Origin: Candidatus Zhuqueibacterota bacterium
Lineage (GTDB): Bacteria; Zhuqueibacterota; Zhuqueibacteria; Thermofontimicrobiales; Thermofontimicrobiaceae
Assembly: GCA_049322915.1 (NCBI GenBank)
Contig: JBMOPW010000014.1
Coordinates: 922,774 to 986,773 of the forward strand
Direction of reading: 5' to 3'
DNA length: 64,000 nucleotides
Positions within the stretch are counted from its first letter, which is position 1; each line of letters begins with the position of its first letter. The notes beneath the pieces are model-generated. The model made no database searches, was not told the DNA's origin, and saw only the letters and a list, made by a program, of their open reading frames with translations. The translations under genes were made by a program, and so were the position numbers. Below, piece after piece: positions 1 through 62,482 of this stretch.

Positions 1-319
1 ATTGACGGTTTCAATATACAATATTAAAAAATAAAAAGCAAACATTTTTTTTATTTTTATCACAAAATTGCCAACATTTTTTTTCTGAGTTGTTTACCTG
101 CAGCCCAGTCGCACCACGTTCCTCTGTCGACAGGACAGTTCATTTGCACAACATGAGGCAGGCATGGTAATTCTGCGTGTTTAGCTCCAGCATTCAGCGC
201 CTCACGCCCAACGTGCCTGTTGATTGGTGACTCATCGCGGGCAGATCGCAGGAGTTCCAGCATGGCGTCCGATGAGGCCGTATTTTTCAACCCGCGTGGA
301 AATTTGTAATCGAACCGGA

Positions 320-1351
320 TCATTGAGCATACAATTCTTTCATGGACTGTTCCATGTGTTCAATGAGATGGCATCGGACCGAACGATCGGCCATGAGGAT
401 GGCGTTTTTAATGGCTTTGGCTTTGGACCGGCCATGGGCTTTTATCACCAGTTTCTGAAAACCGAGGATGGGAGCGCCGCCGTATTCAGAATAATCCATT
501 CGCTTTTTGAGCTTTTTCAATACAGGAGCTAACATGGTCATGCCGAGCCGGGACAGGAGGCTCTTCTTCCATATCCTCTTGCCGGTTTTTATGGACATCT
601 CCGCCACCCCTTCGAGGGTTTTTAGCACAATATTTCCAACCAACCCTTCCGTGATGATGACGTCTGCAATACCCCGCATGATGTCCTTACCTTCAATATT
701 GCCAATGAATTCAATGCCTTTGATGTGTTTCAACGTCCGATTGGTCTCGACAAGGACTTCGTGGCCTTTGGTATCCTCCTCGCCAATATTGAGCAGGCCA
801 ACTCTGGGATGTTCGATGTTGATGACCTCTTTGGCGTATTGAACTCCCATGAACGCAAAACTGACGAGTTGATTCACCGTGCAGTTTAATGTGGCGCCGA
901 CATCCAGCATGATGGATATGCCTGGATCGCCGTGTTTCTTGCGCACGGACGGAAGGACGGCAGCCAGCACACCGCGTTCAATGCCCGGCATTCGCGGGAT
1001 GAATTTGGAGCAGGACAGAATGGTCGCTCCTGTGTTGCCCGCGCTGACTAAAGCGTCTCCTTTGTCATCGCGAATCAATTGCGCGGCGACATTGATGGAT
1101 GCATCGGTTTTTTCATTGACAGATTCTTTCGGCTTGTCATCCATCGTGATGATTTCGGATGCATGGACAATTTCCCATCGGTCGGCAGGGATTTTGGCAT
1201 TGATAATCAGAGGTTTTATGTCGTGTTCGCGACCAACAAACAGACAGTAAATATCATCGTTTTCGGTACAGGCGGTGGCTGCTCCATGAATAATTTCCAG
1301 AGGCGCGTTGTCTCCGCCCATCGCATCGATGACAATACGGTTATGAGGCAT
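320..1351 (-). CDS. plsX: Phosphate acyltransferase PlsX
   Basis: N-terminal 'IVIDAMGGDNAP', 'VSAGNTGA', 'LDVGA', 'GLLNIGEEDTKG', 'FIGNIEG', 'YGGAPILG..KAHGRS' motifs of PlsX; 343 aa. Confidence 0.96.
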   Translation of the reverse strand: MPHNRIVIDAMGGDNAPLEIIHGAATACTENDDIYCLFVGREHDIKPLIINAKIPADRWEIVHASEIITMDDKPKESVNEKTDASINVAAQLIRDDKGDALVSAGNTGATILSCSKFIPRMPGIERGVLAAVLPSVRKKHGDPGISIMLDVGATLNCTVNQLVSFAFMGVQYAKEVINIEHPRVGLLNIGEEDTKGHEVLVETNRTLKHIKGIEFIGNIEGKDIMRGIADVIITEGLVGNIVLKTLEGVAEMSIKTGKRIWKKSLLSRLGMTMLAPVLKKLKKRMDYSEYGGAPILGFQKLVIKAHGRSKAKAIKNAILMADRSVRCHLIEHMEQSMKELYAQ

Positions 1352-1456
1352 TTTTTTCCCTTATTGGTGAGTATCCATCTCGATAATTACGCGTTTTGAA
1401 ATACAATCGGTCTCGCGGTTTCTACGGGATCAAGGATACAGATGAATGCTACATGA

Positions 1457-1524
1457 TTCCGTTAGATTTTCATAAATGAATCTGACATACGCACGGAGTT
1501 TTTTAGAATGAAATTTTAACGGAA
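1457..1524. repeat. Short (68 bp) element with 17-bp imperfect terminal inverted repeats
   Basis: TTCCGTTAGATTTTCAT (1457-1473) vs ATGAAATTTTAACGGAA (1508-1524), 15/17 complementary. Confidence 0.5.
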
Positions 1525-1883
1525 CTGGTTCCATGATTTCCCAATCGCCTAAATCAACAGTCATCAGAACGCTTTTCTCCGTTGCTAAAGATAAGAAAAA
1601 TAATTTTGAGATTCAATAAATATTTCAGCGTAATAGTTGAACAGACGGTTTTCTATCACGATGTTTTAGATGATGGAGTAGAGGTGCAATCGTCTCCTTT
1701 CGTTGCAGGAAGAAGAATTCAAAAGGGCAAGCCGATGAGATAGATCGGGACGTGCACTGGCAACTCGTCCCATGTCCGGCAATGTCGAATGAACATGGTG
1801 TTTCGAGCTACAGTCCAGGATGTCGTTTAAAGTTCGCTGGTGAAAAACCATGAGATAGAGTTACAGGTTGCTTCCCGGATTCA

Positions 1884-3731
1884 TCATTTTTCATCATCGG
1901 GGTGCATCGGTCTCGGAGCCTTTTCACAATGGAGAATTTTTCTTGTTATTTCTTTATCTTCGATGAGTTCGGTAATCTGACTTACCGATAACCAGCGCGG
2001 TTGTCGGCTATAGTGTTTACCTGTGACATTATCGATGACGAGACTGACGAGCTGTTCGGTGACTCGTGATGATGCTTTAAATTTTTCAGGGAAAACAATA
2101 TGTTCGGAAAGCTGCTCCATGGTTGGATAGTGGGATAGCACAATCCGAAAATTGGCATTGGCCAGCAATGCAAAATTTTCATCATCCGCATCCTGATTTT
2201 GACGGGGCGCAACGCCGATGTTGACTGAAACCATATTGTGCACGATGAACAAATCTAACAGGGTGGGCAGAAACAAGGGCTCGGTTTTGAGCAAGGGGAA
2301 TCCGGTGCGAAGCTCAGCCGTGTTGTTGATCAGCACGGAGTTGAATGGCCTTTGCAACTCATTCACTTCGCCGATGATGGTCTCGATGACATTGAAACAT
2401 TCCTCAGGCGCTAATTGACCAATTTTAAACGAAGTGACTGTGACCAATGGCGTGTCAGGTGGATACTTATCCGGCATGTCGATTATACCGTAGCAGGTGT
2501 GCCAGAATTTGGTCTGACTGCCAGCGAGTTTTAGTTTGATTTCTTTCAGTGACATGAAATCTTTATTGAATTCAGTCCAGGCAATTCCCTTGAATCCCAG
2601 GTCGCTTGCGCCTCCGAAATTGATGACCAATAAATTGGGGAATTTTTCATCTGATAATTTGCCCATTGCCAGATTCAAACCCAGCGCTAATTTATGGGTG
2701 CCGTTCGGGCCAATGATCGCTATGCAGGAGTTCGGCTTTATCCGATCGCTATTGAGAATGAGGCCGAGATCCTTCTCGGTCTGATTGTCGATTTTATACA
2801 CAACGGAATCTGGCAATTGCGTTTGTCTAGCTGCCCGCACTTTAGATAAAACGTAGTGAATGGATGGGTAGACGACCAACCCTTTACGCAGGTTAGATTT
2901 AATGCCTACGGCAATGGGTTTGGTACGAATTTTGTAGAGATGGCGCCCTAACGCCTGACGGCATTTTCTGGATTTAATGATTTCCAGAAAGTATTGCAGA
3001 TAGCCGGTCTGACTGTCTTTCGTCAGGTCGATCACGACATCGGCTAAGAACTTAGTACATTCGAATGTGACCTCCTCTTCCTCGAGCGAATAATTGGGAT
3101 AGCGTTCCAGCGTGATGATCCCGGGAACATGGTAGTTTCTCAATAATGAAAAAAGATGATAAATTTCATGCCGCAACAGAGGGCGACCCGCAAAAGCGGT
3201 GAGACTGTCTATCACGAACAGGATGAAATTGTGCTCGTCAATTGAAGAGACCAGTTCGAGGACATGATTCAATTCGGAGATGCGCTGATCGTAAATGCTG
3301 CCTTCTTCTTTGCCCGAAAAGGGGCGAGGCGAGAAATGGCAGAAATAGATGGTGTTATCATTGGTAAATTCTAAATTTTCATCAAAAGTGGCAAGATCGA
3401 TGAAATCGATTTCGAGTTCATTCTTTTCATCGAAACAACTGAAGTGCTCTGATACGCTTTTTAACGATTGATAGGTCTGCTCCAGACTGTAGAAAAACAC
3501 AAACCATTTTGCATTGGCCGTGGCTGAATGGGCAATTTGCAGCGCCAGCGTCGTCTTGCCAGTCCCTGTAGTGCCTTCGATGACGAGGATGGGGGTTTCC
3601 AGATCGGTGCGAATTTCTCCTTCACCGATGTACAAGCCGCCGTTCTTTTCATCATCGCTGCGATCCTGGGAGAGGAGGTCGTCCAGATGAGGGATGCCAG
3701 TGGAAAGATAGATTTTTTTTGTTTTGTTCAT
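1884..3731 (-). CDS. KaiC/RAD55-like RecA-superfamily ATPase with two domains (second domain degenerate)
   Basis: 'STGIPHLDDLL' start, Walker A GTTGTGKT, 'FYSLEQ', Walker B 'LFVIDSL', 'ADVVIDL', 'EIIKSR', 'GLVVYP'; second P-loop remnant 'IIGPNGTHK'; 615 aa. Confidence 0.85.
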   Translation of the reverse strand: MNKTKKIYLSTGIPHLDDLLSQDRSDDEKNGGLYIGEGEIRTDLETPILVIEGTTGTGKTTLALQIAHSATANAKWFVFFYSLEQTYQSLKSVSEHFSCFDEKNELEIDFIDLATFDENLEFTNDNTIYFCHFSPRPFSGKEEGSIYDQRISELNHVLELVSSIDEHNFILFVIDSLTAFAGRPLLRHEIYHLFSLLRNYHVPGIITLERYPNYSLEEEEVTFECTKFLADVVIDLTKDSQTGYLQYFLEIIKSRKCRQALGRHLYKIRTKPIAVGIKSNLRKGLVVYPSIHYVLSKVRAARQTQLPDSVVYKIDNQTEKDLGLILNSDRIKPNSCIAIIGPNGTHKLALGLNLAMGKLSDEKFPNLLVINFGGASDLGFKGIAWTEFNKDFMSLKEIKLKLAGSQTKFWHTCYGIIDMPDKYPPDTPLVTVTSFKIGQLAPEECFNVIETIIGEVNELQRPFNSVLINNTAELRTGFPLLKTEPLFLPTLLDLFIVHNMVSVNIGVAPRQNQDADDENFALLANANFRIVLSHYPTMEQLSEHIVFPEKFKASSRVTEQLVSLVIDNVTGKHYSRQPRWLSVSQITELIEDKEITRKILHCEKAPRPMHPDDEK

Positions 3732-3769
3732 TTCGCTGCCCCTTTTTGATTGTGGGTTAAAACGTGTCA

Positions 3770-3855
3770 GGGCTAAAGCCCGGATCCCCTTGTCTTCCGG
3801 TTAGTGTCCGCCATGAATGTCGGAGCAATTCATGGAGAGAAACCATAGCCCGGGC
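3770..3855. repeat. Cluster of short REP-like palindromes
   Basis: GGGCTAAAGCCC (3770-3781), TCCGCCATGAATGTCGGA (3807-3824) and GCCCGGGC in the intergenic gap. Confidence 0.4.
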
Positions 3856-3928
3856 GCGGATGATGGCCTCAATTCTTTAAAACAGGGGATCTGTCATCTG
3901 CCAAATTTATCGGTTATCCGCCCGCACT

Positions 3929-5212
3929 TTATTTTTTGAAGCTCGAATAATCGCACCCAAATGCTTTGTAGATTGCATTAATTTTTTCCCGATTCAGCGT
4001 TATTTTCAGATGATCGTTGGGGTAGAAGGTGATGTAACATTCCGGAGTCACAAAATTCATCTGCTGGACAATCCATTTTTCCCGTTCAGTCAGAATGTAT
4101 CCGACTTTCGCTTCCAGGGACTTCCAATGGAAAACATCATGCCCCATACTGCCAAGAGACATTCTGACGATGGCATCCAACAATTCCTGAACGCCTGGAC
4201 GCTTATCCTTCTTACCTTTTTCAAAAATAGTATTCAGGGTGGTTGGCTTCGTTTTGTTTTCTGCCTTGCTATCGCTCAGCCTGACCAAAAGTTTATTACG
4301 GTGCATAAAAAAAACATGATTAAATGCGATGCCTTCCTCTTTCAGTAATTCTCCCCAGTTTGCCAGAACTACGTTGACACTTTCTTTCATCCTGTTCAAT
4401 TTTGCTATCTCAAAACTGTCCAAAGTTTTTGTCATGTTCAGTACCTGAGTTTCATCTTTATTTTCAGCAGTATCGGTAGTATCGGTCGCTGCAGCATCGG
4501 TTTGATAGAATGCCGGGATGTGAAGGATGATGCATTCGCCTTGCAGACAAAACTCGACATCTTCGACAAAGCGACGGACACCTTTGACCAACTGAATGCT
4601 GGAAAATTTTGTTATTCTATCGTAAAGGTATTCCTGTAATGAACGGGTCCAGACATTTTCAGTCTCGTCGGCAATACGTAAAATTGCAGAGATGAAAGGA
4701 ATTCTCAACCGGCCATAGGGCTCTAAAGAAAACATCTGATAGTTTCGAATATTTTTGTCGTGCGCAAATGGATTTTCAACGCCATGATACCAGGAGACGA
4801 GTGCGCAGTACTTGGCAATGCGCTCATCCGGCAAACCCAATTCCGCCCAGCATTCTTCGATGATGCGCCGACTCTCTTCCTGATGATGGACTACCGGGTA
4901 ATCCCGCTTTTCCCTGGGGGGAAGCAATAACAGCTTGCCGATGTCGTGCAGAAAGATTGAGCTGAGCAGAAGAAATATTTCGCCAGCACTGAAATCTTCC
5001 TTGATCTGGTCCGGGATCATTTTGTTGGCGTTGCGCTCGACGTTCAACAAATGAGGGTAGCCGGAATGGGAGCCCAGGTCGAAGCTTAACAACGGCACCC
5101 ATTCTTCAATGCCCTTTTGTTTAATGTCTCCCAGTTTTGAAAAAAGCTCGGGATCTTTTTCTTGCAAAATGGTTGCAAAGGTTCGCTTCGTTTCAAAACG
5201 CGTGTCCATCAT
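3929..5212 (-). CDS. HD-superfamily phosphohydrolase (HD-CE-like) with C-terminal extension
   Basis: 'HSGYPHLLNVE', 'LLLSSIFLHDIGK', 'HHQEES', 'WYHG', 'ILRIADE' give a full set of HD metal ligands; start placed at ATG 5212 (or 5209) after AAAGGA RBS rather than the ORF-track start 5269. Confidence 0.75.
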   Translation of the reverse strand: MMDTRFETKRTFATILQEKDPELFSKLGDIKQKGIEEWVPLLSFDLGSHSGYPHLLNVERNANKMIPDQIKEDFSAGEIFLLLSSIFLHDIGKLLLLPPREKRDYPVVHHQEESRRIIEECWAELGLPDERIAKYCALVSWYHGVENPFAHDKNIRNYQMFSLEPYGRLRIPFISAILRIADETENVWTRSLQEYLYDRITKFSSIQLVKGVRRFVEDVEFCLQGECIILHIPAFYQTDAAATDTTDTAENKDETQVLNMTKTLDSFEIAKLNRMKESVNVVLANWGELLKEEGIAFNHVFFMHRNKLLVRLSDSKAENKTKPTTLNTIFEKGKKDKRPGVQELLDAIVRMSLGSMGHDVFHWKSLEAKVGYILTEREKWIVQQMNFVTPECYITFYPNDHLKITLNREKINAIYKAFGCDYSSFKK

Positions 5213-5498
5213 GAGTTCCTTTCTTTTAATGGTGCGCGGTGAACTGAAGTCGCAATGCGAGAGGTCCAACTAAGAAGGCGAGTTGATTTGCCAGGACTCA
5301 TTCCGTAATAAAGCCGTCAGGGAAAAGAGGAGGATCGATGTGTGGACGAGTCAACAGATTGATTGATAATGGGAAATAACCAATGTTAATATAACTGAAG
5401 CGTCTGTAAAAGTCAACCATATTTTTTCGAACAAACGTAGTTTTAATGCGATTATATTGGGAGATTCAATGGGCATGGGACAAGTTTTTAGTTCCAAT

Positions 5499-5527
5499 AA
5501 AAAAGCCCACAGTTCGTGGGCTTTTTT
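5499..5527. terminator. Bidirectional intrinsic terminator downstream of tRNA-Thr
   Basis: AAAAAAGCCCAC-AGTTC-GTGGGCTTTTTT, a hairpin with A/T tails on both sides. Confidence 0.85.
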
Positions 5528-5538
5528 CGGCATTGCTG

Positions 5539-5611
<73 letters not shown>

Positions 5612-5642
5612 AAATATAACTATCCTGATTATAAAACTTTAT

Positions 5643-5700
5643 CCGCCGACCTATCCGCCATTTTCGAAACGGATTGCTCTACCAGCTGAGCTACGGTGGC
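5643..5700 (-). pseudogene. Partial tandem copy of tRNA-Thr with a replaced anticodon arm and no T-loop or 3' acceptor strand
   Basis: 33-bp exact repeat 5674-5706 = 5585-5617, plus CCGCCGACCTA (5643-5653 = 5559-5569); the segment between is a different hairpin, ATCCGCCATTTTCGAAACGGAT. Confidence 0.8.
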
Positions 5701-5803
5701 AAATATTAATGCTCTGATTTTCAATGTATCGGCCACGACCTTTTCGCCGGATACGATTGCGTTTGCATTCCGGCTTTGGGCTGTTGTCAAAATAACGGGC
5801 ACT

Positions 5804-5832
5804 AATATATGAAAAACGAAACTAAAAGTCAA
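5804..5832 (-). promoter_or_regulatory. Probable sigma70-type promoter for the tRNA transcript
   Basis: Minus strand TTGACT-17 bp-TATATT. Confidence 0.65.
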
Positions 5833-5964
5833 TAATTTTGTTGGCTGACAGCAGCCGATCCCTGAGCGGAACAACGGCTGAGACAATGAACCTGGCTCAG
5901 CCGAATGTCCGATGGATTGACCTGAAAAGGGGATGAAGTATTTAATGCATTCGTCATGCCCTTC

Positions 5965-8900
5965 TTAATGAAATGTCAGCTTCAACGTCTTTATCTCAAA
6001 CGGCCCGAATGTCAATGCCACCTGTCCTGCATTGCGTTCGAGCATCGTGTCTTTCTGCTCCATCAAATCGGTCTCAAATACGGTCGCATTCGAATGGAGC
6101 AACGTCAGTCGGGCAGTGACAGATCTGCCTCTGGGCTCGTAGCAGCGCAGGATCAGCGCATCCTCGCGCTCCGCCTTTTTGACGACTTCCACAATGATAT
6201 CCCTGTGCCCGATGGTGAATGGCAGGGTGATTCCGGCGCCGGCATAGCCCGGATAACAGGCCGGTGGCTGATTGAGTTGCAGGGCTTCAGCCCACACGCC
6301 GGATTCAATCGTGTCCTTCGCATGGGGGAAGAGACTGTAGGTGAACGAATGAAATCCCCTGTCCGCAACAGGGTCCGGCATAGTGGTCGCGCGCAGCAGG
6401 TTCAAATCAATGACATTGTCCAGAATATTGTATCCGTACTTGCAGTCGTTGAGCAGGGCCACGCCGTAGTCCCTGTCCGCCAGATCAGCGAAACGATGGC
6501 CCACCACTTCGAATTTGGCTCTGTCCCAACTGGTATTACGGTGCGTGCTCCGTTTCAATAAGCCGTATTGAATTTCAAAGACAGCGACGTCGGAAAAAAC
6601 ATTCACCGGAAAGGCGACGCGCAGCATCCGATGCGTTTCCTGCCAATTGACTTCAGTCTCAAAATCAAGGCGCTTGCTGTTGGCGGCAAGGTAAATGCGC
6701 TGGGTGATGTGCGAATGGCCAATTGTCAGTTTCTGGGCGAATCCCTGCCGAAGCGGTCCCTGACAGAGCCATTCCTGGCGCTCAACGCGGGCTTGTTCCA
6801 GCAGTTGGTTTTCATAAAAAATATCAATATCCCATGCATCCCAATTTGCCGGGCGGTCTTCGTACAGACACAACCGATTGCCGCTCGCTTTTGTCGCCAG
6901 AATTTCTCTCTGGCTCTCTTTGTCGTATGCGCGCTGGATGACGCCGGCGTCAGTGAATTCGTATCGAACCAATTCGTTCTCCAGAATGAATCGGTCGGAA
7001 TCGAGCCGCGATGGGCGATTGGCGTTTTGCCGGCCTTTGCGAACCGTGACGGAACGGAACGGGGGAATTTCGACGAGCATGATCGATCCCTGATTCTCAG
7101 CTTGCACCGGCATGGATTGGCCGGCGTCATCCACGATGTCGTAACCCTGCCAGGAATCAGGCAGGACAATGGGTCTGGAATAGATGCAGGAAAGCGAATT
7201 GAACACAGTCATGGCCTGATCATCGTTATCAAACAGAAGATCACCAGCGGCCCGGGCGAGTTGACTGGCCTCAGCGTGCAGCCAGGCGTAGTCTTCGCGA
7301 CATTGCTCGTAGACCGGGGTGATGCTCGATCCGGGAATGATGTCGTGGAATTGATTGAGCAGCACCTTTTTCCACATTGCGTCGAACTGCCGGGATGGAT
7401 AATTTTTCAATGGTAACAGGGCATAGAGGATTTCCAACTCGCGCAATTTCAATTCCATAAAACGGTTCATTTTCTTGTTGTACGCCTGAGTTGTCAGCGT
7501 GCCGCGATGCAGTTCAAAATACAATTCGCCCACCCATCGCGGCAGCAGGTCTTTGTTTTCAGCCAAATAATTGAGAAAGTCCTGTGCCGCGCCGAACTGC
7601 ACTTTCGGGCAATTCTCCAGTTCAGCCAGGCGGCGGCCGGTTTCCAGCATCTCTTCGGTTGGCCCGCAGCCGCCGTCGCCGATGCCGAAGAGGGTGAGGA
7701 ATTGATCCAGGTAATCATGCTCGGCAAAATTTTCCTGAGCATAGATGAGTTTGGATGGCCGCAACTCGCTGCCGTAGTTATCCTCCGGCGGAAAATGGGT
7801 GATGACCTCGCTACCATCGATGCCCCGCCAGATGAATGTGTGATTGGGCAATTTATTGAACTGGTTCCATGAAAGTTTCTGGGTGACGAAAAAATCAATG
7901 CCGGCCTTTTTCAAAATTTGAGGCAATGCCGCGCTGTAGCCAAACACATCCGGCAGCCACAGATTCTTCACGTCGATATTGAATTCGTCCTGATAAAAAT
8001 TCTTGCCGTGGAGAATTTGCCGCACCAGTGACTCGCCGCTGATGATATTGCAATCGGCTTCGACCCACATGCCGCCCTGGACTTCCCAGCGCCCCTCAGC
8101 GATTCGCGCTTTGATTTTTTCGTAAAGCGACGGGTAGTTCTCTTTGACGAAAAGATAGTGCTGCGGCATGGATGCGCCGAACACATAGCCTGGATATTTT
8201 TCAATCAGTTGCAGTTGCGAAGAAAATGTCCGGGCGCATTTGCGGATGGTCTCGTGAATCGGCCAGAGCCAGGCCGTGTCCAGATGGGCGTGCCCCACGG
8301 CGCGCGTGGTCAAATCCGAGGCGCAGCCGGGTTTTTCCAGTTCCGGCTTCAGGACATCCCGCGTCCGTTGCACAGACCCTTCGTCAGGCTGGAAGCAATC
8401 GATGGCGCGCATCAACGCCCGCAGGATTCGGGCGCGGCGAACGTTTTTCTCCGGCAACGCCCTCATCAGATCGTTCAGCACGAAACAATCCATGTACAAT
8501 TCCCAAATATCCTTTCGGAATACGGCCAGCCTGGCGTACTGAAACGCTGCCTCGTAATTGCCATAGGCGACCGGGCCCCTATCGCCCCGATCCTGTTCCA
8601 ATTGCAGCCCGAACAACTGGCCGGCAGAGCCTTCGATCCAATAGTCAATCGTCTCGCGGCCGGTCGCCCGCGCGGCAATGTCCAGCCGATCCCGACGGAA
8701 ATGATTCAGCCATAGCGAGTGAATGCTCAGCGCAGTCACAGGCGTCCCATCCTCGTCGAACACCAGACCTTCACCGCCGATATTTATCAGAGCCACGACC
8801 CGCTTTCCGCGCCAATTTTCCGGCGTTGCGCCAGTCACATGAAACCAGGCTCGCTCCCAATTTTTGCCCCAAGTTTCGCCCTGCTGAATGGGCCGATACG

Positions 8901-9051
8901 CGCCGCTCAACCGCTGTGAAAAAGGGACAATAGGCTGAAATGGGCAGACATCGGTTTGCATTTCCAACTCGTCTTCATAAAACAGGCCAGTCAATCGTTT
9001 CAAAAAAACTTCAATTCGCTGCTCGTACAATTTTCGTTCGTTGTCGATCAT
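5965..9051 (-). CDS. Alpha-mannosidase, glycoside hydrolase family 38
   Basis: 'GHAHLDTAWLWP', 'GGMWVEAD', 'WLPDVFGYS', 'GIGDGGCGPT', 'GELYFELHRGT', 'NQFHDIIPGSSI'; 1028 aa. Confidence 0.95.
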   Translation of the reverse strand: MIDNERKLYEQRIEVFLKRLTGLFYEDELEMQTDVCPFQPIVPFSQRLSGAYRPIQQGETWGKNWERAWFHVTGATPENWRGKRVVALINIGGEGLVFDEDGTPVTALSIHSLWLNHFRRDRLDIAARATGRETIDYWIEGSAGQLFGLQLEQDRGDRGPVAYGNYEAAFQYARLAVFRKDIWELYMDCFVLNDLMRALPEKNVRRARILRALMRAIDCFQPDEGSVQRTRDVLKPELEKPGCASDLTTRAVGHAHLDTAWLWPIHETIRKCARTFSSQLQLIEKYPGYVFGASMPQHYLFVKENYPSLYEKIKARIAEGRWEVQGGMWVEADCNIISGESLVRQILHGKNFYQDEFNIDVKNLWLPDVFGYSAALPQILKKAGIDFFVTQKLSWNQFNKLPNHTFIWRGIDGSEVITHFPPEDNYGSELRPSKLIYAQENFAEHDYLDQFLTLFGIGDGGCGPTEEMLETGRRLAELENCPKVQFGAAQDFLNYLAENKDLLPRWVGELYFELHRGTLTTQAYNKKMNRFMELKLRELEILYALLPLKNYPSRQFDAMWKKVLLNQFHDIIPGSSITPVYEQCREDYAWLHAEASQLARAAGDLLFDNDDQAMTVFNSLSCIYSRPIVLPDSWQGYDIVDDAGQSMPVQAENQGSIMLVEIPPFRSVTVRKGRQNANRPSRLDSDRFILENELVRYEFTDAGVIQRAYDKESQREILATKASGNRLCLYEDRPANWDAWDIDIFYENQLLEQARVERQEWLCQGPLRQGFAQKLTIGHSHITQRIYLAANSKRLDFETEVNWQETHRMLRVAFPVNVFSDVAVFEIQYGLLKRSTHRNTSWDRAKFEVVGHRFADLADRDYGVALLNDCKYGYNILDNVIDLNLLRATTMPDPVADRGFHSFTYSLFPHAKDTIESGVWAEALQLNQPPACYPGYAGAGITLPFTIGHRDIIVEVVKKAEREDALILRCYEPRGRSVTARLTLLHSNATVFETDLMEQKDTMLERNAGQVALTFGPFEIKTLKLTFH

Positions 9052-9921: not shown

Positions 9922-11025
9922 TCAGCGCGTGTATCGGCCAAATTTGTCCACCAACTCTCTCACCCGCCGGATGCGGTATTCCAGCCCATCCGGGGGCACC
10001 TGGTCGGCGACGCCCAGCACGTAGCGCGGTGCGCTTCGCTGCACATCGAGCGCATGTCTGATGAATCGCTCGAATTCATCATCGCTGATGAGCGGTGTGA
10101 AATAGCTGCCGGGAATGCCACCCCACAAAATGGTGCCGGGATTGTTCGCCAGCGCAGCCCAATCGTCAATGGGCGCATCGCCCACCGGGGCCGGCGTCAT
10201 GGCTTCGATGACGGAAACGCCGGTGGACGATTCCTGTCGCAGCAGCCCTTTGAGCGTGCCATCCATGTGGATGAAAGAAGATTTTCCGGCGGCATGGATT
10301 TTCTCAATCCATTCCTGTTGATAGGCGCGCATGAATTTTTCGAAGAAATTTGGCCCGACCATTTCTGCGGAGAGATTCTCCGGAATCATGAGCGCCTCGG
10401 CCGGGCTGTCCACGGCAATTTGCGCGGCCTGATCGAAGCTCTGTTTCATCACCGCTAATGTTTCGGCGAATTCATCAGGCGCATTCATCGCTGAAAAGGT
10501 GACAGATTCAATGCCGGCCTCCAGCGCCACAAGCTGCATGAATGGGCTTTTGGGCAGGTAGCAGAGCAGAATGCCCTGGTCGCCGATCTGCTCCATCCGT
10601 TGGTAACAGAAGTCATAATCGGCCTGCCATCGGGTATGTTCATACACAAAACGAAGGGCGGCGAGGTCGCGCTCCGATTTGACGAGATGCTCCACCGGCG
10701 CCTCGGTGTACGATGTGGGAATGTATGCCCAGCATTCCTGCAGTGAGCCGACCGGAGTGATGATCGTGCGATACTTGCGATTGCCCACCTGCCAAATTTT
10801 CTCTTCGAAATCGAACAGCGGTCGGAATGGGAAATGCCCCTGTAAATAAAAACCGACGCCTAATTCGGTGTGCCACTTAATGTAGTCCGGCGACTGCTTG
10901 AAGTCCGCCGGCCGTTCCTTTTTCGTGATCAAAGCGGTGGCCAGATAATCCAGGTCGCCGAACCACGGGACGCGGTCCGGTTGCTGTCCGTTCAAAATAG
11001 TGAGTATTTGTTCCCGAGGGGTCAT
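9922..11025 (-). CDS. Uroporphyrinogen decarboxylase/MtaA-CmuA superfamily protein
   Basis: 'MTPREQI...GQQPDRVPW' N-terminus, 'TPVGSL', 'IHMDG', 'LWGGIP', 'LGVADQVPP'; 367 aa. Confidence 0.85.
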   Translation of the reverse strand: MTPREQILTILNGQQPDRVPWFGDLDYLATALITKKERPADFKQSPDYIKWHTELGVGFYLQGHFPFRPLFDFEEKIWQVGNRKYRTIITPVGSLQECWAYIPTSYTEAPVEHLVKSERDLAALRFVYEHTRWQADYDFCYQRMEQIGDQGILLCYLPKSPFMQLVALEAGIESVTFSAMNAPDEFAETLAVMKQSFDQAAQIAVDSPAEALMIPENLSAEMVGPNFFEKFMRAYQQEWIEKIHAAGKSSFIHMDGTLKGLLRQESSTGVSVIEAMTPAPVGDAPIDDWAALANNPGTILWGGIPGSYFTPLISDDEFERFIRHALDVQRSAPRYVLGVADQVPPDGLEYRIRRVRELVDKFGRYTR

Positions 11026-11399: not shown

Positions 11400-12470
11400 C
11401 TATCGACCTGCGCTGCCGGCAGCGTCAGTCTCACGAATTTTCTGCGCAGCCTCGATCATGGCTAAATAGCCCTGTACCGGGACATAGTCCGGGATGGAGT
11501 TGCCGGAGCCCAGCGCGAATCCTTTCGCCATGTTCCGAAATTTCCGTCCCTGGCTAACGACCTTTTCGAACACGACCTCGGGTTTGTCGAGGCAGAGCAC
11601 ATCCAGGTCGATACCGCCGAGGAAACCGATACTGTCGTTGTAGCGATTGATCCAGACATCGAATGGCGCGATGGCGTCTTCGTTGGAATGCTTGGCATCG
11701 ATGCCGATGGCGATGACATCGTCCATGATTTCAAAGATGTTCCCGCACGAGTGCCAGAGAAACGGGAAACCGGCGCGATGTACGAGGTTCACAACGCGGC
11801 GGTACTGGGGGATGATGTGCCCGCGAATCGTGGCCGGCGCCAGCAGCGTGCTGGTCTTGAATCCCAGGTCGTCTCCAAAGCGGCAGGCGACGAACCCATC
11901 GCAGTGGCGGGCTAAAAATTCCTCCCAGATAGTCGTCATCAAATCCCCGGTCTTTTTGTAAATGTCGCCAAACAGGAGGGGATCCTCCGCCATCATGTAG
12001 GCCAGATATTCGAATCCGACCAGGTCTTCGCTGATTTCAAAGACGCCGTTTCCGATGCCGCCGACCGCTTTCATGCCGGGAGGCAAGGCCTCGACGAGCG
12101 CGCGAAATTGCTTCTCCGCAACGGCCCAGAAACGCCGGGGAATTTCATCCCAGGGGTATTTTTCAAAGTCGGCGCGCGACTGAATTGGCCCGGGCTTCCC
12201 GCCCATGATGGCGCCGTTGTCCGGCAGAAATGAGGTGATGCAGATTTCGAACGATACGACGTCGTAGGTCATGTCCCTGAAGAAGCGGCAATACTGGCGG
12301 AAGAATTCGTTGACATCGGCATCATCGCCCCCGGCTAAATCGGCAAACCGAATATTCAAAATTTTTTCCATGATGCCCGGGCTGATGAGGTGCTCGTAGA
12401 TTGGCAGCCGCGCCGGCCGTTTGTTGGTGACTACATCCAGAAAATGCTGATAGTTCGGGGTGAATTCCAT
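11400..12470 (-). CDS. Uroporphyrinogen decarboxylase/MtaA-CmuA superfamily protein
   Basis: 'GPIQSRADFEKYPW', 'GDDLGFKTS', 'LWHSCGN', 'GGIDLDVL', 'LGSGNSIPDYVP'; 356 aa; GGAGAGG RBS. Confidence 0.88.
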   Translation of the reverse strand: MEFTPNYQHFLDVVTNKRPARLPIYEHLISPGIMEKILNIRFADLAGGDDADVNEFFRQYCRFFRDMTYDVVSFEICITSFLPDNGAIMGGKPGPIQSRADFEKYPWDEIPRRFWAVAEKQFRALVEALPPGMKAVGGIGNGVFEISEDLVGFEYLAYMMAEDPLLFGDIYKKTGDLMTTIWEEFLARHCDGFVACRFGDDLGFKTSTLLAPATIRGHIIPQYRRVVNLVHRAGFPFLWHSCGNIFEIMDDVIAIGIDAKHSNEDAIAPFDVWINRYNDSIGFLGGIDLDVLCLDKPEVVFEKVVSQGRKFRNMAKGFALGSGNSIPDYVPVQGYLAMIEAAQKIRETDAAGSAGR

Positions 12471-25965: not shown

Positions 25966-28900
25966 ATGAAACGATTGATTTTTCAGAGCATTGTCTGGGG
26001 GCTGTGCCTGTTTTCATCGGTGTATCTTTTCGCTCAGGAGGTGAAAATTCTGGTGGTGATGCCGCAGAACTTCGGAGCGAATTATAATTTCAACATTGAA
26101 GATTTTGATGAATACGGCTGGAGCATCACGCTGACGGGCGTTGCGCCGGTGATTCAGCCCTGTCAGGCATTCGGGACAATATTTGCAGGCTGTACAGCGG
26201 TGACGGTGGATACGCTGATTTCAGAAATTGCCGATGTCACTGATTTTGATTGCGTCGCCATTATGCCAGCGGAATGGCGCAGCGGCAATCCCTACTCGGA
26301 TTTGCTCGCAAGTCCCGATGCGATCCATCTGATCAAAACCGCTGCGGATTCCGGCGTGGTGGTCTGGACGACCTGCGCCGGTGCGCGCGTACTGGCAGCG
26401 GCGGACGTGATACGCGGGAAACGCGTGGTCACTCAGGATGCGTTTCGCAGCGAAATCGAAGCGGCCGGAGGTATATTTGTGAGCAGCGACCATGCCCCGG
26501 TCACGGAGGGAAACATCATCACAACGGTGCGGGGCCAGTATTATCATGTCCATAATAATCAGGCCATTGCCACGGCGCTTGAGGAGAGACTTCGCGTCAA
26601 CGGCCCGGCGAGCAAAAAATTCACTGCCGCTGCGAACACCATCAGTTCCGATGTGCAACTGCGCGGCGCTCTCTGGGCTAAAACCTACGGCGGCGTTAAC
26701 GCCGATGCCGGCCGGGCTATCTGCGAGACTACGGACGGCGGATTTGTCATCGCCGGCTTCACGTATTCATTGGGACAGGGCTACGCAGATGCGTACGTAC
26801 TCAAAGTGGACGCGCAAGGAAATCGGCAATGGGAGAAGACGTTCGGAGGATCCAGTTGGGAATATGCTTACAGCGTCGTTCAAACCCGGGATCGCGGATT
26901 CGTGATTGCCGGATATACCGCCTCGTTCGGGGCCGGTTCCAAGGATGTGTTTGTGATAAAACTCAGCGAAACCGGCGAAATGCAATGGGAAAAGACATTC
27001 GGCGGCGCCGACAGCGATGTCGGAAAAGCGGTCTGCGAACTGCCCGATGGATCGCTGCTGGTCGCCGGGTACACTGAGTCCGCAGGGGCCGGAGAAGAAG
27101 ATGTCTACGCGATCAAATTGAATTCGGCCGGGGACGAGTTGTGGTCAAAAACATTTGGCCGAAATCGGTCTGAAATGGGCGCTGCCTGTTGCTGCACGGC
27201 CGATGGCAACATCGTGATCGCCGGGTCCACGGGCACAGAACCATTCAGCAGCGGCAATATGGATTACTATCTTTTCAAAATAGATCCGGCTGGAAATGTG
27301 CTCTGGGAGAAGGCGTTTGGGAATACCATTTCAGCGCATCCCTATGACTGGGCAAATGCCGTTGCCGAAACCCGGGACGGCAGTTTCGTCATGGCCGGCA
27401 ATAGCGACATCCGCTCGCCCCTCGATGCCTACGCAGTCAGCGCCGATGGGGATGGCGCGATGCTCTGGCAGCAACATTACGGGGAACGATTTTATGATTA
27501 TGCAAATTCGATTGAGCAGACGACAGACGGCGGCTTTCTGATCTGCGGCGCGCAGAAAGATAATCAGACTGAAGATAAAAATATGTCCGTCATTAAAACC
27601 GATTCCAGCGGCAATGAAATCTGGCGCAAGACGTTTGGCGGCGATGGAGCGGATTGGGCGAGCGATTTTTGCCAGACATCGGATGGCTGCTACGTGATTG
27701 TCGGTCATACAAAATCGTTCGGCGCCGGCAATTTTGATGTGTTCCTGATAAAAATTTCCAGCCTGTTCCCACGGTTTAATGCTGCGCCGACATCAGGTCA
27801 TGCCCCTTTGTCCGTAGATTTCGGGGATATGTCGCTGGGTGAAATCACGGGCTGGCAGTGGGACTTTGACAGCGATGGCATCACGGATTCCGAAGCGCCG
27901 GGCCCGTCGTGGATTTACAACGCGCCGGGCAATTACGATGTCACGCTCCTGATTCGCAATGCCACCCAGGCGGATACAGTCGTCAGTAAAAATCTGATTC
28001 AGGTTTTTGATGGCCACAGCGCGCTGGTATTCAATGGCAGCAGTTCGAAAATCGTCTGTCCGGCCTCGGCATCTCTCAATATCACCGAAAATCTTACCGC
28101 CGAAGCCTGGATTTATCCAGAAAATTGGGGGCCAAATTCCATGATTGGATTTGGGCGAATTGTGGAAAAGCAGCAGTTTTCACTGTACCTGATCGATTCC
28201 AGTCCGGCGTTCAATGACCATTGCCTGGCGTTGCAGCTCCTTCATGCCGGCGGCGCGCGCAGTATTTCCATGACCCCGGATAGTTCCATTCAGCTTAATA
28301 CGTGGCAGCACATTGCCGTGACGTACGCCGGCAATGGCAGCGAAGTGAAAATGTACATCAATGGCATTGAGCAGCCGATCAAATTTACCTCGGCCCCGGC
28401 CGGACTCATTGCGGACAATAGCGGGTATGATTTGATCATCGGCAATAACGCTGCCAATGGCTACGGCTTCAAAGGGACGATTGATGAAGTGCGGCTTTGG
28501 AATGCGGCGCTCTCCACGCAGCAGATTTTTGAAGCGATGGACGGCCACTACTGCGCCGGCAAAGCCGGCATGGTCGGTTGCTGGGGAATGGATGAGGGCA
28601 GCGGCGCTGTGGTGCTTGATGTTTCGAATTGCCGGAATGATGGCGCCATTGCGGACGCTGTCTGGTGTCAGGGACTGTCCCTGGTTCCCACGTCTGCCAG
28701 GGCAGGGACCACAGCCGCGACTCCGGATCATTTCCTGCTCTATGATAATTACCCCAATCCATTCAATCCGGAGACGATGATCCGCTTTTTTCTGCCGGAA
28801 GCATCGCCGGTGAAAATTGTCATCTACAGCGTGACCGGGGCCCGCGTCAGTACGCTGATGGATGCTCGCTGCGAAGCCGGTTTTCATGAATTGACCTGGA

Positions 28901-29007
28901 ATGGCACGGACGCCCGCGGCAATTCAATGAGCAGTGGCGTGTATTTTTACAAACTCACGGGTCATGCCGGCGCATCGTCTGTGAAAAAAATGTTGCTCCT
29001 CAAATAA
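25966..29007 (+). CDS. Secreted multidomain protein: DJ-1/PfpI + beta-propeller repeats + PKD + LamG + FlgD-Ig/T9SS-like CTD
   Basis: Signal peptide; 'TCAGARVLAAAD..GKRV' DJ-1 nucleophile region; repeated 'W.KTFGG...D.G..V..T.DGGF.IAG'; 'WQWDFDSDG' PKD; 'WQHIAVTY...IDEVRLWN' LamG; 'NYPNPFN'. Confidence 0.85.
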   Translation: MKRLIFQSIVWGLCLFSSVYLFAQEVKILVVMPQNFGANYNFNIEDFDEYGWSITLTGVAPVIQPCQAFGTIFAGCTAVTVDTLISEIADVTDFDCVAIMPAEWRSGNPYSDLLASPDAIHLIKTAADSGVVVWTTCAGARVLAAADVIRGKRVVTQDAFRSEIEAAGGIFVSSDHAPVTEGNIITTVRGQYYHVHNNQAIATALEERLRVNGPASKKFTAAANTISSDVQLRGALWAKTYGGVNADAGRAICETTDGGFVIAGFTYSLGQGYADAYVLKVDAQGNRQWEKTFGGSSWEYAYSVVQTRDRGFVIAGYTASFGAGSKDVFVIKLSETGEMQWEKTFGGADSDVGKAVCELPDGSLLVAGYTESAGAGEEDVYAIKLNSAGDELWSKTFGRNRSEMGAACCCTADGNIVIAGSTGTEPFSSGNMDYYLFKIDPAGNVLWEKAFGNTISAHPYDWANAVAETRDGSFVMAGNSDIRSPLDAYAVSADGDGAMLWQQHYGERFYDYANSIEQTTDGGFLICGAQKDNQTEDKNMSVIKTDSSGNEIWRKTFGGDGADWASDFCQTSDGCYVIVGHTKSFGAGNFDVFLIKISSLFPRFNAAPTSGHAPLSVDFGDMSLGEITGWQWDFDSDGITDSEAPGPSWIYNAPGNYDVTLLIRNATQADTVVSKNLIQVFDGHSALVFNGSSSKIVCPASASLNITENLTAEAWIYPENWGPNSMIGFGRIVEKQQFSLYLIDSSPAFNDHCLALQLLHAGGARSISMTPDSSIQLNTWQHIAVTYAGNGSEVKMYINGIEQPIKFTSAPAGLIADNSGYDLIIGNNAANGYGFKGTIDEVRLWNAALSTQQIFEAMDGHYCAGKAGMVGCWGMDEGSGAVVLDVSNCRNDGAIADAVWCQGLSLVPTSARAGTTAATPDHFLLYDNYPNPFNPETMIRFFLPEASPVKIVIYSVTGARVSTLMDARCEAGFHELTWNGTDARGNSMSSGVYFYKLTGHAGASSVKKMLLLK

Positions 29008-34759: not shown

Positions 34760-36469
34760 TTATTTTAAAAGCAGCATTTTTTTTGAATGCTGCCGGGCAT
34801 CGACAATGAGGCTGACAAAATAGACGCCGGAGGCGACATTCTCCTGAGATTGATTTTTCCCATCCCATGTCAGCGTGTGTTGCCCGGCGGAAAATCGGCC
34901 CGAGCCAATCGTCCTGACAAATGCTCCGTCGAGATTGAAGATCGTGACGTGCGCATACTTCGGAGCGTTCAGGATAAAACAGATCGACGTGGAGGCGTTG
35001 AAGGGATTGGGATAGTTGGGTAGCAGGCGAATATCCTGTTCCGGGTGAGGTGATTCTGAAGAGACGTCCGAACTGCTGATTTTCAAATCCACGGCATCGC
35101 CCTCCTTCAAAAAGGAAAGCCGCGCGTTCACAAATCCCCGGTAGTTCGTGGCGCGATTTGCAGAGCGGACATAGGCTGGCGCAAAGTGAGTGATGCTGTT
35201 GGTCTTCAAAACGTAAGCGACGCCGTGCGCAACCGTTAAAATTCCCCCGGCGGAGATGTTGACATCGCTGTTAAATTCGCTGTTATCCCGATCCCCGTTG
35301 AGATAGAGAACGCGATAGCCGGGATGAGCTGCGCAGGCCCACATGCCTCCGATCCAGCGATTTTCGAAATAATAGCTTTCACGGGCTGGGTCTTCCCACA
35401 TGAGTTTGTGGATGATCACGGTATTGGGCACAACATTCGACCCTGCGGATTTTGAAAGGGTCCCGCGCCAGGCAGCGCTTTCGCTGGATGTGAGATAATT
35501 GACGACATCACTGCCGGCGTTTGGCGCATCATCGTCGACGCCGCTCAGGTTGACGGCAGTGAAATTATTGTCCACGAATATCGTTGAAATCGGGTTCAGA
35601 TAAGGGCCGGGATCGATCAGTTCGCGGTGAGCCAGATCAAAGACAGCGCCCCGGGGCAGATGATGAAACACAATGTCGGTGAACGTCAGCGGTTTTCCCG
35701 GCTGGCAATCGATCGTGGATGTTTCGCTCTGATAAAGGATGGAGACAGTGGCGTCGCCGAAGACAGTGGCCAGTCGGGATTCATCCACGCATAAAGCGGT
35801 ATTCTCGCAGATGCCGATGCCCATGATATTTTTCTGACCGTTGTCCACGATGCGGCGGGCTAACATGGGAACGAGCCGGGTCAGCCGGCCCCGCGGGAAA
35901 AAGTGAGAATCGGTCAGAACATCGGGAAGGAGATTTAAAAAATCATCGGTGAGGTGAATGTCCGGCGTGTAGGAATTGTACGCCGACTCGTCCGGGTACA
36001 GATAGCCGCCGGTGGCATCGTAGACAACCTGTCCCAGGACTGCCAGTCCGGCGCTCGTTCCACCGATGACGCCGCCGTGGTTGAAGACGTGGTGAATAGC
36101 ATCTTCCACCAATGTCCCTTTCCACGTCAGCACATACTCGCTCTGGTCGCCGCCCTCCAGGAAGATGCCTTTGGCCGAGATCAATGTGTAGAAGGTAGCC
36201 GAGTCATTTGCCGCAGTTTTGCTGCTGATTCGGAGTGCTTCGCTAGAGCTATCCGCGCCCAGCGAGATGAAGTATTCAGGGTATTCCGGACTCGCCTGGT
36301 CCACATCGATATTGATGATCTTTCCGAAATCCGCTTTTTCAATGAACCAGGTGAAGGGCGCGTCAGCCCAGGAACTGTATTCGCTGCCGCCGCCAACCAT
36401 GAGCAATGATCCCTGGGCGTGCAAAATGAACGGCGCGAACATACACAGAATGAACAATGTCAATTTCAT
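34760..36469 (-). CDS. Secreted cyanophycinase-like serine peptidase (S51) with FlgD-Ig/T9SS-like CTD
   Basis: 'LLMVGGG', 'GIFLEGGDQ', nucleophile 'GGTSAG', 'DSHF..RGR..RL', 'GIGICENTA'; 'NYPNPFN'. Confidence 0.85.
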   Translation of the reverse strand: MKLTLFILCMFAPFILHAQGSLLMVGGGSEYSSWADAPFTWFIEKADFGKIINIDVDQASPEYPEYFISLGADSSSEALRISSKTAANDSATFYTLISAKGIFLEGGDQSEYVLTWKGTLVEDAIHHVFNHGGVIGGTSAGLAVLGQVVYDATGGYLYPDESAYNSYTPDIHLTDDFLNLLPDVLTDSHFFPRGRLTRLVPMLARRIVDNGQKNIMGIGICENTALCVDESRLATVFGDATVSILYQSETSTIDCQPGKPLTFTDIVFHHLPRGAVFDLAHRELIDPGPYLNPISTIFVDNNFTAVNLSGVDDDAPNAGSDVVNYLTSSESAAWRGTLSKSAGSNVVPNTVIIHKLMWEDPARESYYFENRWIGGMWACAAHPGYRVLYLNGDRDNSEFNSDVNISAGGILTVAHGVAYVLKTNSITHFAPAYVRSANRATNYRGFVNARLSFLKEGDAVDLKISSSDVSSESPHPEQDIRLLPNYPNPFNASTSICFILNAPKYAHVTIFNLDGAFVRTIGSGRFSAGQHTLTWDGKNQSQENVASGVYFVSLIVDARQHSKKMLLLK

Positions 36470-39900: not shown

Positions 39901-40177
39901 ATTTGCCCTGTTCCAGAATTATCCCAATCCGTTCAATTCGAAAACGCAAATTCGGTATGATTTACCGGCCAAGGGATTTGTGACGTTGGATATCTATAAC
40001 CTGCTGGGCCAAAAGGTTCGGCGGCTTGTTGAGAAAAGCCAGCCGGCCGGAATTTATACGGTGAGTTGGGATGGCCTGGATCATTTGGGCAGGCCTGCCG
40101 GCAATGGCGTTTATTTTTATGTCATAGCTATGGATGATAAAACGTTGCCGGCCCGGAAGATGGTTGTTTTGAAATGA
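36986..40177 (+). CDS. Secreted M1-family zinc aminopeptidase with C-terminal Ig-like domains and FlgD-Ig/T9SS-like CTD
   Basis: 'GGAMEHQT', 'HELAHQWFGD', 'WLNEGFASY', 'YDKGAWVLHMLR'; 'NYPNPFN'. Confidence 0.93.
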   Translation: MTNKLKALAFFMYFVCFPSLGTGQTVHDQIREFEAARFARNQGAFSMRAMKGEPSDIDVSYYRIDLKINPYEENISGSVYMEAISQIAGLNEISLDFFDNMIVDSVVSQGDTLGWTHSENSLNITLPQTIEIDDYIGLHVYYHGRPSAAGGFKSFDFGSHLEFPIVATLSQPFGAPAWWPCKDDPADKADSVDIAITVPDTFIVASNGVLVSKTENEDTTTTYFWSERYPISTYLVSLAITNYEVFSDYYYSGTDSMEVLYFVYPENEAAAREDFTITVEAITHFSSLFGQYPFIDEKYGMAEFQWGGAMEHQTCTSYGRGLIQGNHRYDSYLVHELAHQWFGDLITMKRWSHIWLNEGFASYAEALWAEHRGGQDSLFNYMDEFDQGLFPTSVFVYDSTNIAELFSRTVYDKGAWVLHMLRHVLGDSSFFESLAAYREAFAFGNATTEDFRDVCESVYGADLDWFFEQWVYGFFRPSYEYAWSDSEAGENHIVTLKLDQVQVYTGLFKMPLDVQLTTLSGDTTCVVWDSLASQTFQFVMDEEVIKLQIDPDNWVLKELLIKDRHNVSGTIFTGDKSTPLPDALVYFSRIDLATYMALSVDTVHSKSSGHYDISVIPGFYVVEVVKPEDGYLPAEPEYIEIDRNISGLDFVLTAPRISTGYDSLLVFLDQGENFTDTLVIENAGNGQLLFSVAPILSGGMLKSPASYATLSPLAPGLKIPLGELPDMSGLRQGAASAPTGSWQLVYKDPEDNPAGVMDLSETWMQISGGKLYFKVSSFYQYAQLNQLEYDLLIDTDGNPDTGIFAGWLGGDYVVVVTDFGGVFSALARYTGSGFELVTLASYENMDAANNEFTTAFPLTSFGSAKVLSMISVVQSLTNPLLDQDVAPNNNFGYFIFSLEEIPWLHIEPNFGLVEASQPGSVIITILPGALSAGHYHANLVIANNEATNMKKIVPIRLDYITSVADQETVPGSFALFQNYPNPFNSKTQIRYDLPAKGFVTLDIYNLLGQKVRRLVEKSQPAGIYTVSWDGLDHLGRPAGNGVYFYVIAMDDKTLPARKMVVLK

Positions 40178-59113: not shown

Positions 59114-59160
59114 AGCTGTAAACTCCTGCAAGCGTGGGAAAAGACATCCATCGGATTATC

Positions 59161-59986: not shown

Positions 59987-60025
59987 GTTGTTCTCCTTGA
60001 TCATTTATCCGATGCGGACAGCAGC

Positions 60026-60565: not shown

Positions 60566-60567
60566 GA

Positions 60568-61601: not shown

Positions 61602-61694
61602 AACAGTCACTCATGCGTTGCGATGATCACCAAAGAATTTCCCAACAGCATGGGCCGCGCTGTTGGGATGAATTCCATGAAGGGATTGCAGGTC

Positions 61695-62465: not shown

Positions 62466-62482
62466 GACAGTCCCCGTATAAT

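Follow-up and report, generated by a model that had tools for sequence, protein, structure and literature searches.

The window studied here, a stretch of 64,000 nucleotides (nt) from contig JBMOPW010000014.1 of a Candidatus Zhuqueibacterota bacterium, carries within its first 6 kb two adjacent genes that appear to form a real functional unit, a conclusion supported by the comparison of homologous sequences. One encodes a phosphohydrolase of the HD-CE family and the other an ATPase made of two tandem domains of the KaiC fold. Read 5' to 3' on the minus strand, the order is tRNA-Thr(CGT), HD gene, ATPase gene and plsX, in agreement with the first-pass annotation of this DNA, which had placed two co-oriented genes between tRNA-Thr and plsX (Table 1). 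The identities of the domains, the integrity of the active sites and the linkage of the genes are established. We infer that the pair moves horizontally and works on its own as an NTPase-plus-effector module of the ‘biological conflict’ kind, directed against phages or other mobile elements, and we hold the chances of this reading to be about even. The reading rests on the HD-CE and KaiC family assignments, on active sites that are intact in every member, on the conserved and specific linkage with its co-divergence and fusions, and on the accessory character of the pair.

Evidence for a two-gene unit

Co-occurrence was measured as exact equality in the size of the longest contig between clusters of HD homologues and clusters of ATPase homologues. 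By this measure 21 of the 58 non-self HD clusters agree to the nucleotide with an ATPase cluster, and four of these common contigs are as small as 3872, 5178, 5349 and 5518 nt. Since the coding sequences take up about 3.1 kb, contigs of 3.9 to 5.5 kb leave no choice: the two genes must be adjacent on them. The background for such coincidences, taken from 119 relatives of PlsX, amounts to two, one of which (2280 nt) is physically impossible. The two proteins have also diverged together. The distance matrices of 22 HD/ATPase pairs correlate with r = 0.949, a value that partly reflects the species history common to both proteins and that none of 2000 Mantel permutations reached.

Fusions provide a third line of evidence. 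A profile search with the HD family returned 1112 representatives at E <= 1e-3, including 90 at E <= 1e-30; the split members among them amount to about 48 at E < 1e-60. Among the 33 long HD relatives, 31 are recognised by the ATPase profile as well as by that of the HD family, in every case with HD first and ATPase second. Most fusions cover both ATPase domains, and 30 of the fused proteins rank in the top 150 of the HD profile search. The two long relatives that are not fused, P0160 (899 amino acids, aa) and P0166 (1663 aa), are HD proteins without an ATPase domain, in which the HD profile aligns in two pieces around a large insert (about 480 and about 1240 residues, respectively) placed before the last 90 or so residues; neither insert has a Pfam match at E <= 1e-6.

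As a control for specificity, a search within 10 kb of 80 loci at KaiC-like genes brought up no protein that the HD profile recognises; 79 of these are ordinary KaiC-like genes retrieved by a generic Walker A pattern, and L001 is the sole family member among them. The pairing is not the product of chance, as the common contigs, the co-divergence and the fusions together argue. Unrelated genes that merely stand side by side in this genome could be separated by a gap such as the one seen here (197 nt), and no third common feature was found; yet recurrent same-contig pairs in 21 other clusters, the high co-divergence and the 31 same-order fusions refute this explanation, which we regard as extremely improbable. 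The first-pass annotation had itself named failure of the two genes to co-occur in other genomes as fatal to its proposal, and the recurrent pairs and fusions rule out such an absence.

Two observations count against the conflict-module reading. The remaining 37 of the 58 HD clusters could not be matched to an ATPase contig, for which short contigs, cluster-level masking or the limit of 8000 candidates could account, and which does not show the ATPase gene to be absent. In addition, the longest contigs of P0020 (an HD homologue) and P0336 (a PlsX relative) are both 2561 nt, which leaves room for both genes.

The pair probably shares one transcript; neither a promoter-like nor a terminator-like site was called in the spacer between the genes. 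The HD gene most likely starts at the ATG at 5212 (427 aa) or at 5209 (426 aa), the relatives beginning one codon later and thus giving 426 aa. Upstream of it, and downstream of a hairpin with a T-run that can be read in the sequence after tRNA-Thr, lies a promoter-like site that agrees with the consensus at 10 of 12 positions; it is a consensus match alone, with no evidence of function.

The HD protein

The HD protein was described at first as HD-CE-like, and it does score above the curated cut-off of Pfam HD-CE (PF24391), with 53.7 bits against 27 (E 3e-14, residues 54-184). The same family exceeds its gathering threshold in all 54 relatives, 43 of which also match the general Pfam family HD (PF01966). 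The metal ligands, all reported as present by the first-pass annotation, hold throughout: the six ligands H53, H88, D89, H109, H142 and D181, and the neighbouring E182 show no substitution in any of the 54 relatives aligned. With its H...HD...D ligand motif and the helical N-terminal half of its AlphaFold2 model (predicted local distance score, pLDDT, 88.9), the protein belongs to the HD superfamily. The H..HD..H..H..D ligand pattern is that of two-metal HD phosphodiesterases.

Beyond the family level the structural comparisons are unspecific. A PDB profile search gave nothing significant (best E 0.11), and Foldseek of the whole model against PDB and BFVD gave nothing at E <= 0.001. The weak folds listed include GppA/PPX, PDE5, PgpH, a tRNA-processing enzyme and HD-GYP (best E 0.049).

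These folds, together with the two-metal ligand set, would fit a role of the pair in physiological signalling, with a KaiC-like switch controlling an HD phosphohydrolase that degrades a messenger or alarmone (a cyclic di-nucleotide, (p)ppGpp or a 2',3'-cyclic nucleotide) in the control of stress or growth. The housekeeping context of the window, free of defence neighbours, fits as well, and KaiC relatives are slow ATPase switches; Makarova et al. (2017) reportedly proposed the archaeal KaiC-like ATPases as ‘signal hubs’. However, the best family match is to HD-CE and not to HD-GYP or any other signalling HD family, the family is very rare, scattered across phyla and missing from large related contigs, which is unlike a core regulator, and no sensor, receiver, cyclase or synthetase gene accompanies the pair in the window. 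We consider a signalling role unlikely. The conflict-module reading takes up the same HD-CE assignment: the letters ‘CE’ denote a conflict effector, and a preprint that cites the definition of the family (10.64898/2026.01.15.699771) describes effectors of this kind as predicted to target nucleotide pools.

The first-pass annotation had noted a long uncharacterised C-terminus, and in none of the 54 members does the region from about residue 255 to 426 match a Pfam family; it also has no PDB sequence match and no usable match in the ESM Atlas. In the model it consists of a long helix followed, at 340-405, by a helix-strand-helix-helix-strand-strand unit that is possibly winged-helix-like; BFVD returned small helix-turn-helix (HTH) or winged-helix matches, all non-significant (E 0.4-1.1). 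W285 and L289 are conserved in this region, and E366, G370 and W379 nearly so. It appears to be peculiar to the KaiC-linked group, since HD-CE proteins of 489-688 aa align with the HD profile only up to about position 250.

A further feature is found in 33 of the 54 relatives, in which an insert of 40-100 residues separates the HD motif from H109; it holds 3-5 cysteines and may be a metal-binding knuckle. The insert is absent from the window protein and its nearer relatives.

The ATPase

The partner had been called a two-domain ATPase of the RecA/KaiC type, and the AlphaFold2 model (pLDDT 87.3) upholds this over its full length: against full two-domain KaiC, Foldseek gives E 8.9e-24 over about 610-620 aligned columns, with a template-modelling (TM) score by target of 0.66. 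KaiC is also by far the closest sequence profile (E 6.5e-17). The match to Pfam KaiC (PF06745; 63.6 bits, cut-off 26.6) is confined to residues 10-276. Homologue searches gave 92 matches, about 79 of which are close members of the full family.

The N-terminal domain has a complete active site. G53, G56, G58, K59, T60, E84, Q85, D175 and K253 occur in all 62 sequences compared, and R255 in 59 of them. In a profile alignment to KaiC CI, K253 and R255 sit opposite the ‘K.R’ arginine-finger segment. Such a trans-acting Arg/Lys pair is typical of ring ATPases and suggests an oligomeric ring whose active sites lie at the subunit interfaces.

The C-terminal domain is different. Sequence profiles (Pfam and the PDB profile search) give no match for this half, which nevertheless retrieves KaiC-domain clusters by structure when searched alone in the ESM Atlas (TM by query 0.58-0.65); an hhalign comparison with the N-terminal half is weak (prob 12%, E 0.0025) and in register at the Walker-B strand. 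In the P-loop, G341, G344, H346 and K347 are present in 62 of 62 sequences, and L348, in place of the usual Ser/Thr, in 57. F372-G373-G374 replaces the catalytic Glu, and at the Walker-B position, 470, 38 of the 62 have Asp and 24 have Asn, as does the window protein. Because of the odd P-loop, the missing Glu and the Asp/Asn alternation, this domain is probably non-catalytic, while some 20 invariant residues suggest that it still binds something.

The kinship of the ATPase also bears on the possibility that a RecA-superfamily ring of the RadA/Sms or DnaB type moves on DNA while the HD protein cuts it in the manner of Cas3, in repair or in the degradation of foreign DNA, with the winged-helix-like HD C-terminus binding DNA. 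The split-or-fused combination of HD and P-loop motor does parallel Cas3''/Cas3'. DnaB and RadA are among the weaker ATPase profile matches (E 0.003-0.006), weak Cas3-HD matches appear in PADLOC (E 0.012-0.027) and for Pfam Cas3_HD in four of the 54 HD members (best E 0.014), and the last HD-protein domain has a possible winged-helix order of secondary structure. Against this, the ATPase is nearest to KaiC by a wide margin in both sequence and fold, and KaiC is not a DNA motor; the Cas3 HD model (TIGR01596, cas3_HD) reaches 12.7 bits, well below its cut-off of 43.45; the winged-helix order comes from inspection only, no HTH family being matched; and HD-CE domains are predicted to target nucleotides (10.64898/2026.01.15.699771). 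A DNA-cutting motor is, in our opinion, an improbable account of the pair.

Distribution and base composition

Both families are rare, with 59 HD and about 79 ATPase clusters among 5.8 billion; the PlsX clusters at E <= 1e-90 number at least 352. For the pair there are two clusters at >= 80% identity, after which identity drops to about 50%. The source names of the members range over KSB1, Phycisphaerae, Paludibacter, Terracidiphilus, Terriglobales and metagenome-assembled genomes labelled Lokiarchaeota and Nitrososphaerales, some of these sources being very short, and thus poorly binned, contigs.

The alternative that the two genes are core genes kept in synteny with plsX, which the first-pass annotation had listed as a way to be proved wrong, found no support among the 119 PlsX relatives: no convincing contig is common to the pair and plsX, the two coincidences being the impossible and the possible one given above. 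The PlsX relatives place the host among Calditrichia/KSB1-like bacteria, and large PlsX contigs of related genomes of this kind (3.42, 3.54 and 4.06 Mb) are missing from the HD and ATPase lists. The closest relative of the pair lies on a contig of 23,958 nt that the PlsX set does not include. GC is low in both genes (0.44 and 0.46), and their GC content at third codon positions (GC3), 0.51 and 0.53, puts them lowest among 24 window genes; a further gene is also at 0.53, and the range extends to 0.72. From the rarity, the scatter across phyla, the absence from the large related PlsX contigs and the low GC and GC3, the pair looks like an accessory, laterally moving module and not like a core pair tied to plsX, although this evidence is not decisive.

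Locus and surroundings

Table 1. Features of the HD/ATPase locus, in window coordinates
Feature	Position	Strand	Basis or detail
plsX	320-1351	-	Pfam FA_synthesis, E 7e-98
Tandem two-domain KaiC-fold ATPase gene	1884-3731	-	615 aa; stop codon 1884-1886; Pfam KaiC
C-terminal degenerate RecA/KaiC domain	1887-2831	-	P-loop GPNGTHKL (G341-L348), no catalytic Glu
N-terminal RecA/KaiC domain, complete active site	2832-3731	-	Walker A GTTGTGKT (G53-T60), catalytic E84, Walker B D175, K253/R255
Spacer between HD gene and ATPase gene	3732-3928	-	197 nt
HD-CE phosphohydrolase gene	3929-5212 (open reading frame 3929-5269)	-	Stop codon 3929-3931; Pfam HD-CE
Family-specific C-terminal region of HD protein, residues about 255-426	3932-4447	-	No Pfam match
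HD catalytic domain, residues about 1-235	4505-5209	-	Ligands H53, H88-D89, H109, H142, D181(E182)
Promoter-like site TTGACT-17-TATATT	5388-5416	-	Upstream of HD gene, downstream of tRNA hairpin and T-run
tRNA-Thr(CGT)	5538-5611	-	Rfam over 1-9000

In the Rfam scan of window positions 1-9000 the tRNA alone was above threshold. Just upstream of it, at 5674-5748 on the minus strand, lies a degenerate second copy of the tRNA 5' half and its upstream flank, with the first 33 nt identical, 77% identity over 75 nt and a spacing of 89 nt. It is not called as a tRNA by ARAGORN or Rfam, it lies on the opposite side of the tRNA from the HD/ATPase pair, and it resembles either a tRNA pseudogene that has been truncated or what remains of a tandem duplication.

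The site had been presented as one where accessory islands collect beside a tRNA. That suggestion fell away: a second copy of the tRNA 3' end was not found within 3 mismatches, nor were direct repeats flanking the pair, an integrase or a neighbouring defence gene, and a tRNA-integrated island was rejected on these grounds.

Between the ATPase stop and the start of plsX (1352-1883) there are 532 nt without a recognised gene, apart from a 61-aa open reading frame (ORF) at 1666-1851 (minus strand) that has no Pfam match. An rpmF-like gene precedes plsX in many bacteria; none is present here.

Further along the window, two paralogous genes of the uroporphyrinogen decarboxylase (URO-D) family, at 9922-11025 and 11400-12470 (minus strand), adjoin the gene for a GH38 alpha-mannosidase. 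They are weak members of that family (E about 1e-11) and are possibly methyltransferase-type relatives of MtaA/CmuA. Four large proteins predicted to be secreted carry a C-terminal FlgD_ig domain (25966-29007, 34760-36469, 36986-40177 and 40232-43801), their other domains being DJ-1/PfpI with Laminin_G_3, peptidase S51, peptidase M1 and sortilin/BNR. One of the four also matches Por_Secre_tail, the sorting domain of type IX secretion, and the set is thus consistent with a host of the FCB group. A strong match to class-A-type Beta-lactamase2 (E 1e-53) is encoded at 51203-52093 on the plus strand, where GC is locally low (0.41 at 50-52 kb).

A gas-vesicle cluster at 56978-62558 (minus strand) comprises two GvpL/GvpF genes, a gene combining Gas_vesicle (GvpA-like) and GvpK, an Hsp20-like gene and a CDC48-type double AAA ATPase; it is unusual in a Calditrichia/KSB1-like bacterium. 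Archaeal GvpD belongs to the KaiC family. A tie between the pair and these genes was rejected, the two being about 55 kb apart and the architecture of the ATPase not GvpD-like.

Proposed mechanism and its weighing

If the pair is a conflict module, the ATPase would assemble as a KaiC-like double ring in which the N-ring hydrolyses ATP and the C-ring serves as a non-catalytic sensor of a ligand or partner. The ring would restrain the HD enzyme until an infection cue altered its nucleotide or ligand state; the freed or activated enzyme would then degrade free nucleotides, as is predicted for HD-CE domains, or nucleic acid, so that the invader could no longer replicate and the cell itself might cease to grow. 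Such gating of the HD effector by the ATPase, already suggested in the first-pass annotation, is a reasonable supposition. Docking to the ATPase probably falls to the C-terminal region of the HD protein, a role proposed because this region sets the KaiC-linked HD-CE proteins apart. Going further, the pair could represent immunity based, for the first time, on a double-ring ATPase of the KaiC type, in which a slow, clock-like ATPase cycle of the N-ring and a degenerate, ligand-sensing C-ring act as a timer or threshold that, on infection, licenses the HD-CE enzyme to destroy the nucleotide pool. We regard this extension as doubtful. Such a timer would represent a class of NTPase sensor distinct from the STAND, HSP90/HSP70, SMC/ABC and helicase sensors, and would exist in two-gene and single-protein forms.

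Several results speak against a role in defence. The neighbours in the window are of the housekeeping kind (GH38 mannosidase, URO-D-like proteins, a peroxiredoxin, DnaG and PlsX), and a scan of the 33 window ORFs of at least 150 aa brought up no integrase or defence gene, nor does the window hold an att repeat. By tblastn, neither protein was found in collections of 72,556 plasmids and 50,697 phage records. In the genome-contig scan the sole family member, L001, is cut inside the ATPase gene, and the genes downstream of it are not defence genes. With PADLOC-DB v2.0.0 the window proteins have only local P-loop or HD matches, at E 2e-6 or worse. Finally, the HD model finds no more than weak generic HD folds by Foldseek (best E 0.049 in PDB and 0.047 in BFVD).

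The PADLOC search also bears on whether the system already has a name. The first-pass annotation did not recognise the pairing as a named system, and no PADLOC-DB system matches it. Three fused members and one HD homologue have no PADLOC match at E <= 1e-5, and a split ATPase homologue, P0063, has a local match to mad8. No paper linking KaiC to HD-CE, or to defence against phages, came up in full-text searches of a literature that did not take in the paper defining HD-CE; a term search of Kaur et al. (2020) and Kaur et al. (2021) found no mention of KaiC. Fusions of HD-CE with KaiC are so common among HD-CE relatives that the authors of that defining paper, Nicastro et al. (2023), may have noted them, and the novelty of the architecture is uncertain.

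Should the pair prove a true defence system, the KaiC-fold double ring would be a new class of sensor or switch among the NTPases that gate immune effectors, and the uses of the KaiC fold would extend beyond clocks, motility and signalling. The HD-CE family, so far defined computationally, would gain a compact model of two genes, or one, for the study of substrate and silencing. If its role proves to be physiological regulation, the pair would stand as an unusual phosphohydrolase switch under KaiC control. Either way, the tight pairing in split and fused forms makes the interaction of HD enzyme and ATPase experimentally tractable.

Comparison with known systems

The ATPase is akin to KaiC and to the KaiC-like ATPases (ArlH, GvpD and the KaiC-like signalling ATPases of archaea) in its two tandem RecA-like domains of KaiC fold and in an N-domain that has Walker A and B motifs, a catalytic Glu and, where KaiC has its arginine finger, a K/R pair. 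Unlike KaiC, its C-domain has GPxGTHK[L] in place of GxxGxGKT, lacks the catalytic Glu pair and frequently has Asn at Walker B, and the protein is coupled to an HD enzyme. It falls far short of the NCBIfam models for the KaiC of circadian clocks (19.1 bits against 546 for TIGR02655 and 45.9 against 408 for PRK09302). As the first-pass annotation had stated, partners of the clock and archaellum kinds are missing: kaiA, kaiB and archaellum genes are absent from the 33 longer ORFs of the window and from six small ORFs beside the pair. Scores against the archaellum ArlH/FlaH models are likewise low (15.4 against 215 and 26.5 against 194 bits).

With Cas3, whether split into Cas3'' and Cas3' or fused, the pair has in common that an HD metal enzyme is coupled to a P-loop motor. 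It is unlike Cas3 in that the motor is of the RecA/KaiC type and not a superfamily 2 (SF2) helicase, and in that the neighbourhood holds no cas genes or CRISPR.

Nucleotide-depletion defences, among them the dGTPase/SAMHD1-like HD dNTPases, offer another parallel, since the mode proposed here is likewise that of an infection-activated metal phosphoesterase that drains nucleotides. In the Calcineurin-CE system (PUA-Calcineurin-CE-HAD), depletion of dNTPs by an oligomeric assembly was shown experimentally, as described in the preprint 10.64898/2026.01.15.699771. Both the PUA-Calcineurin-CE-HAD and the dGTPase/SAMHD1-like defences differ from the present pair in the fold or family of the effector and in the sensor, and depletion is here a predicted activity.

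The arrangement also resembles that of the HD-CE effector systems, in which an NTPase partner likewise stands beside, or is fused to, an effector predicted to target nucleotides. Nicastro, Burroughs, Iyer and Aravind, who defined HD-CE in 2023 (NAR 51:11479), reportedly named modules of the HSP90, HSP70, STAND and GTPase types as its partners in their abstract. The HD domain of the pair occupies the effector position next to a regulatory NTPase that marks HD-CE conflict systems, but the partner, unlike those modules, is a tandem KaiC-fold ATPase of the RecA superfamily.

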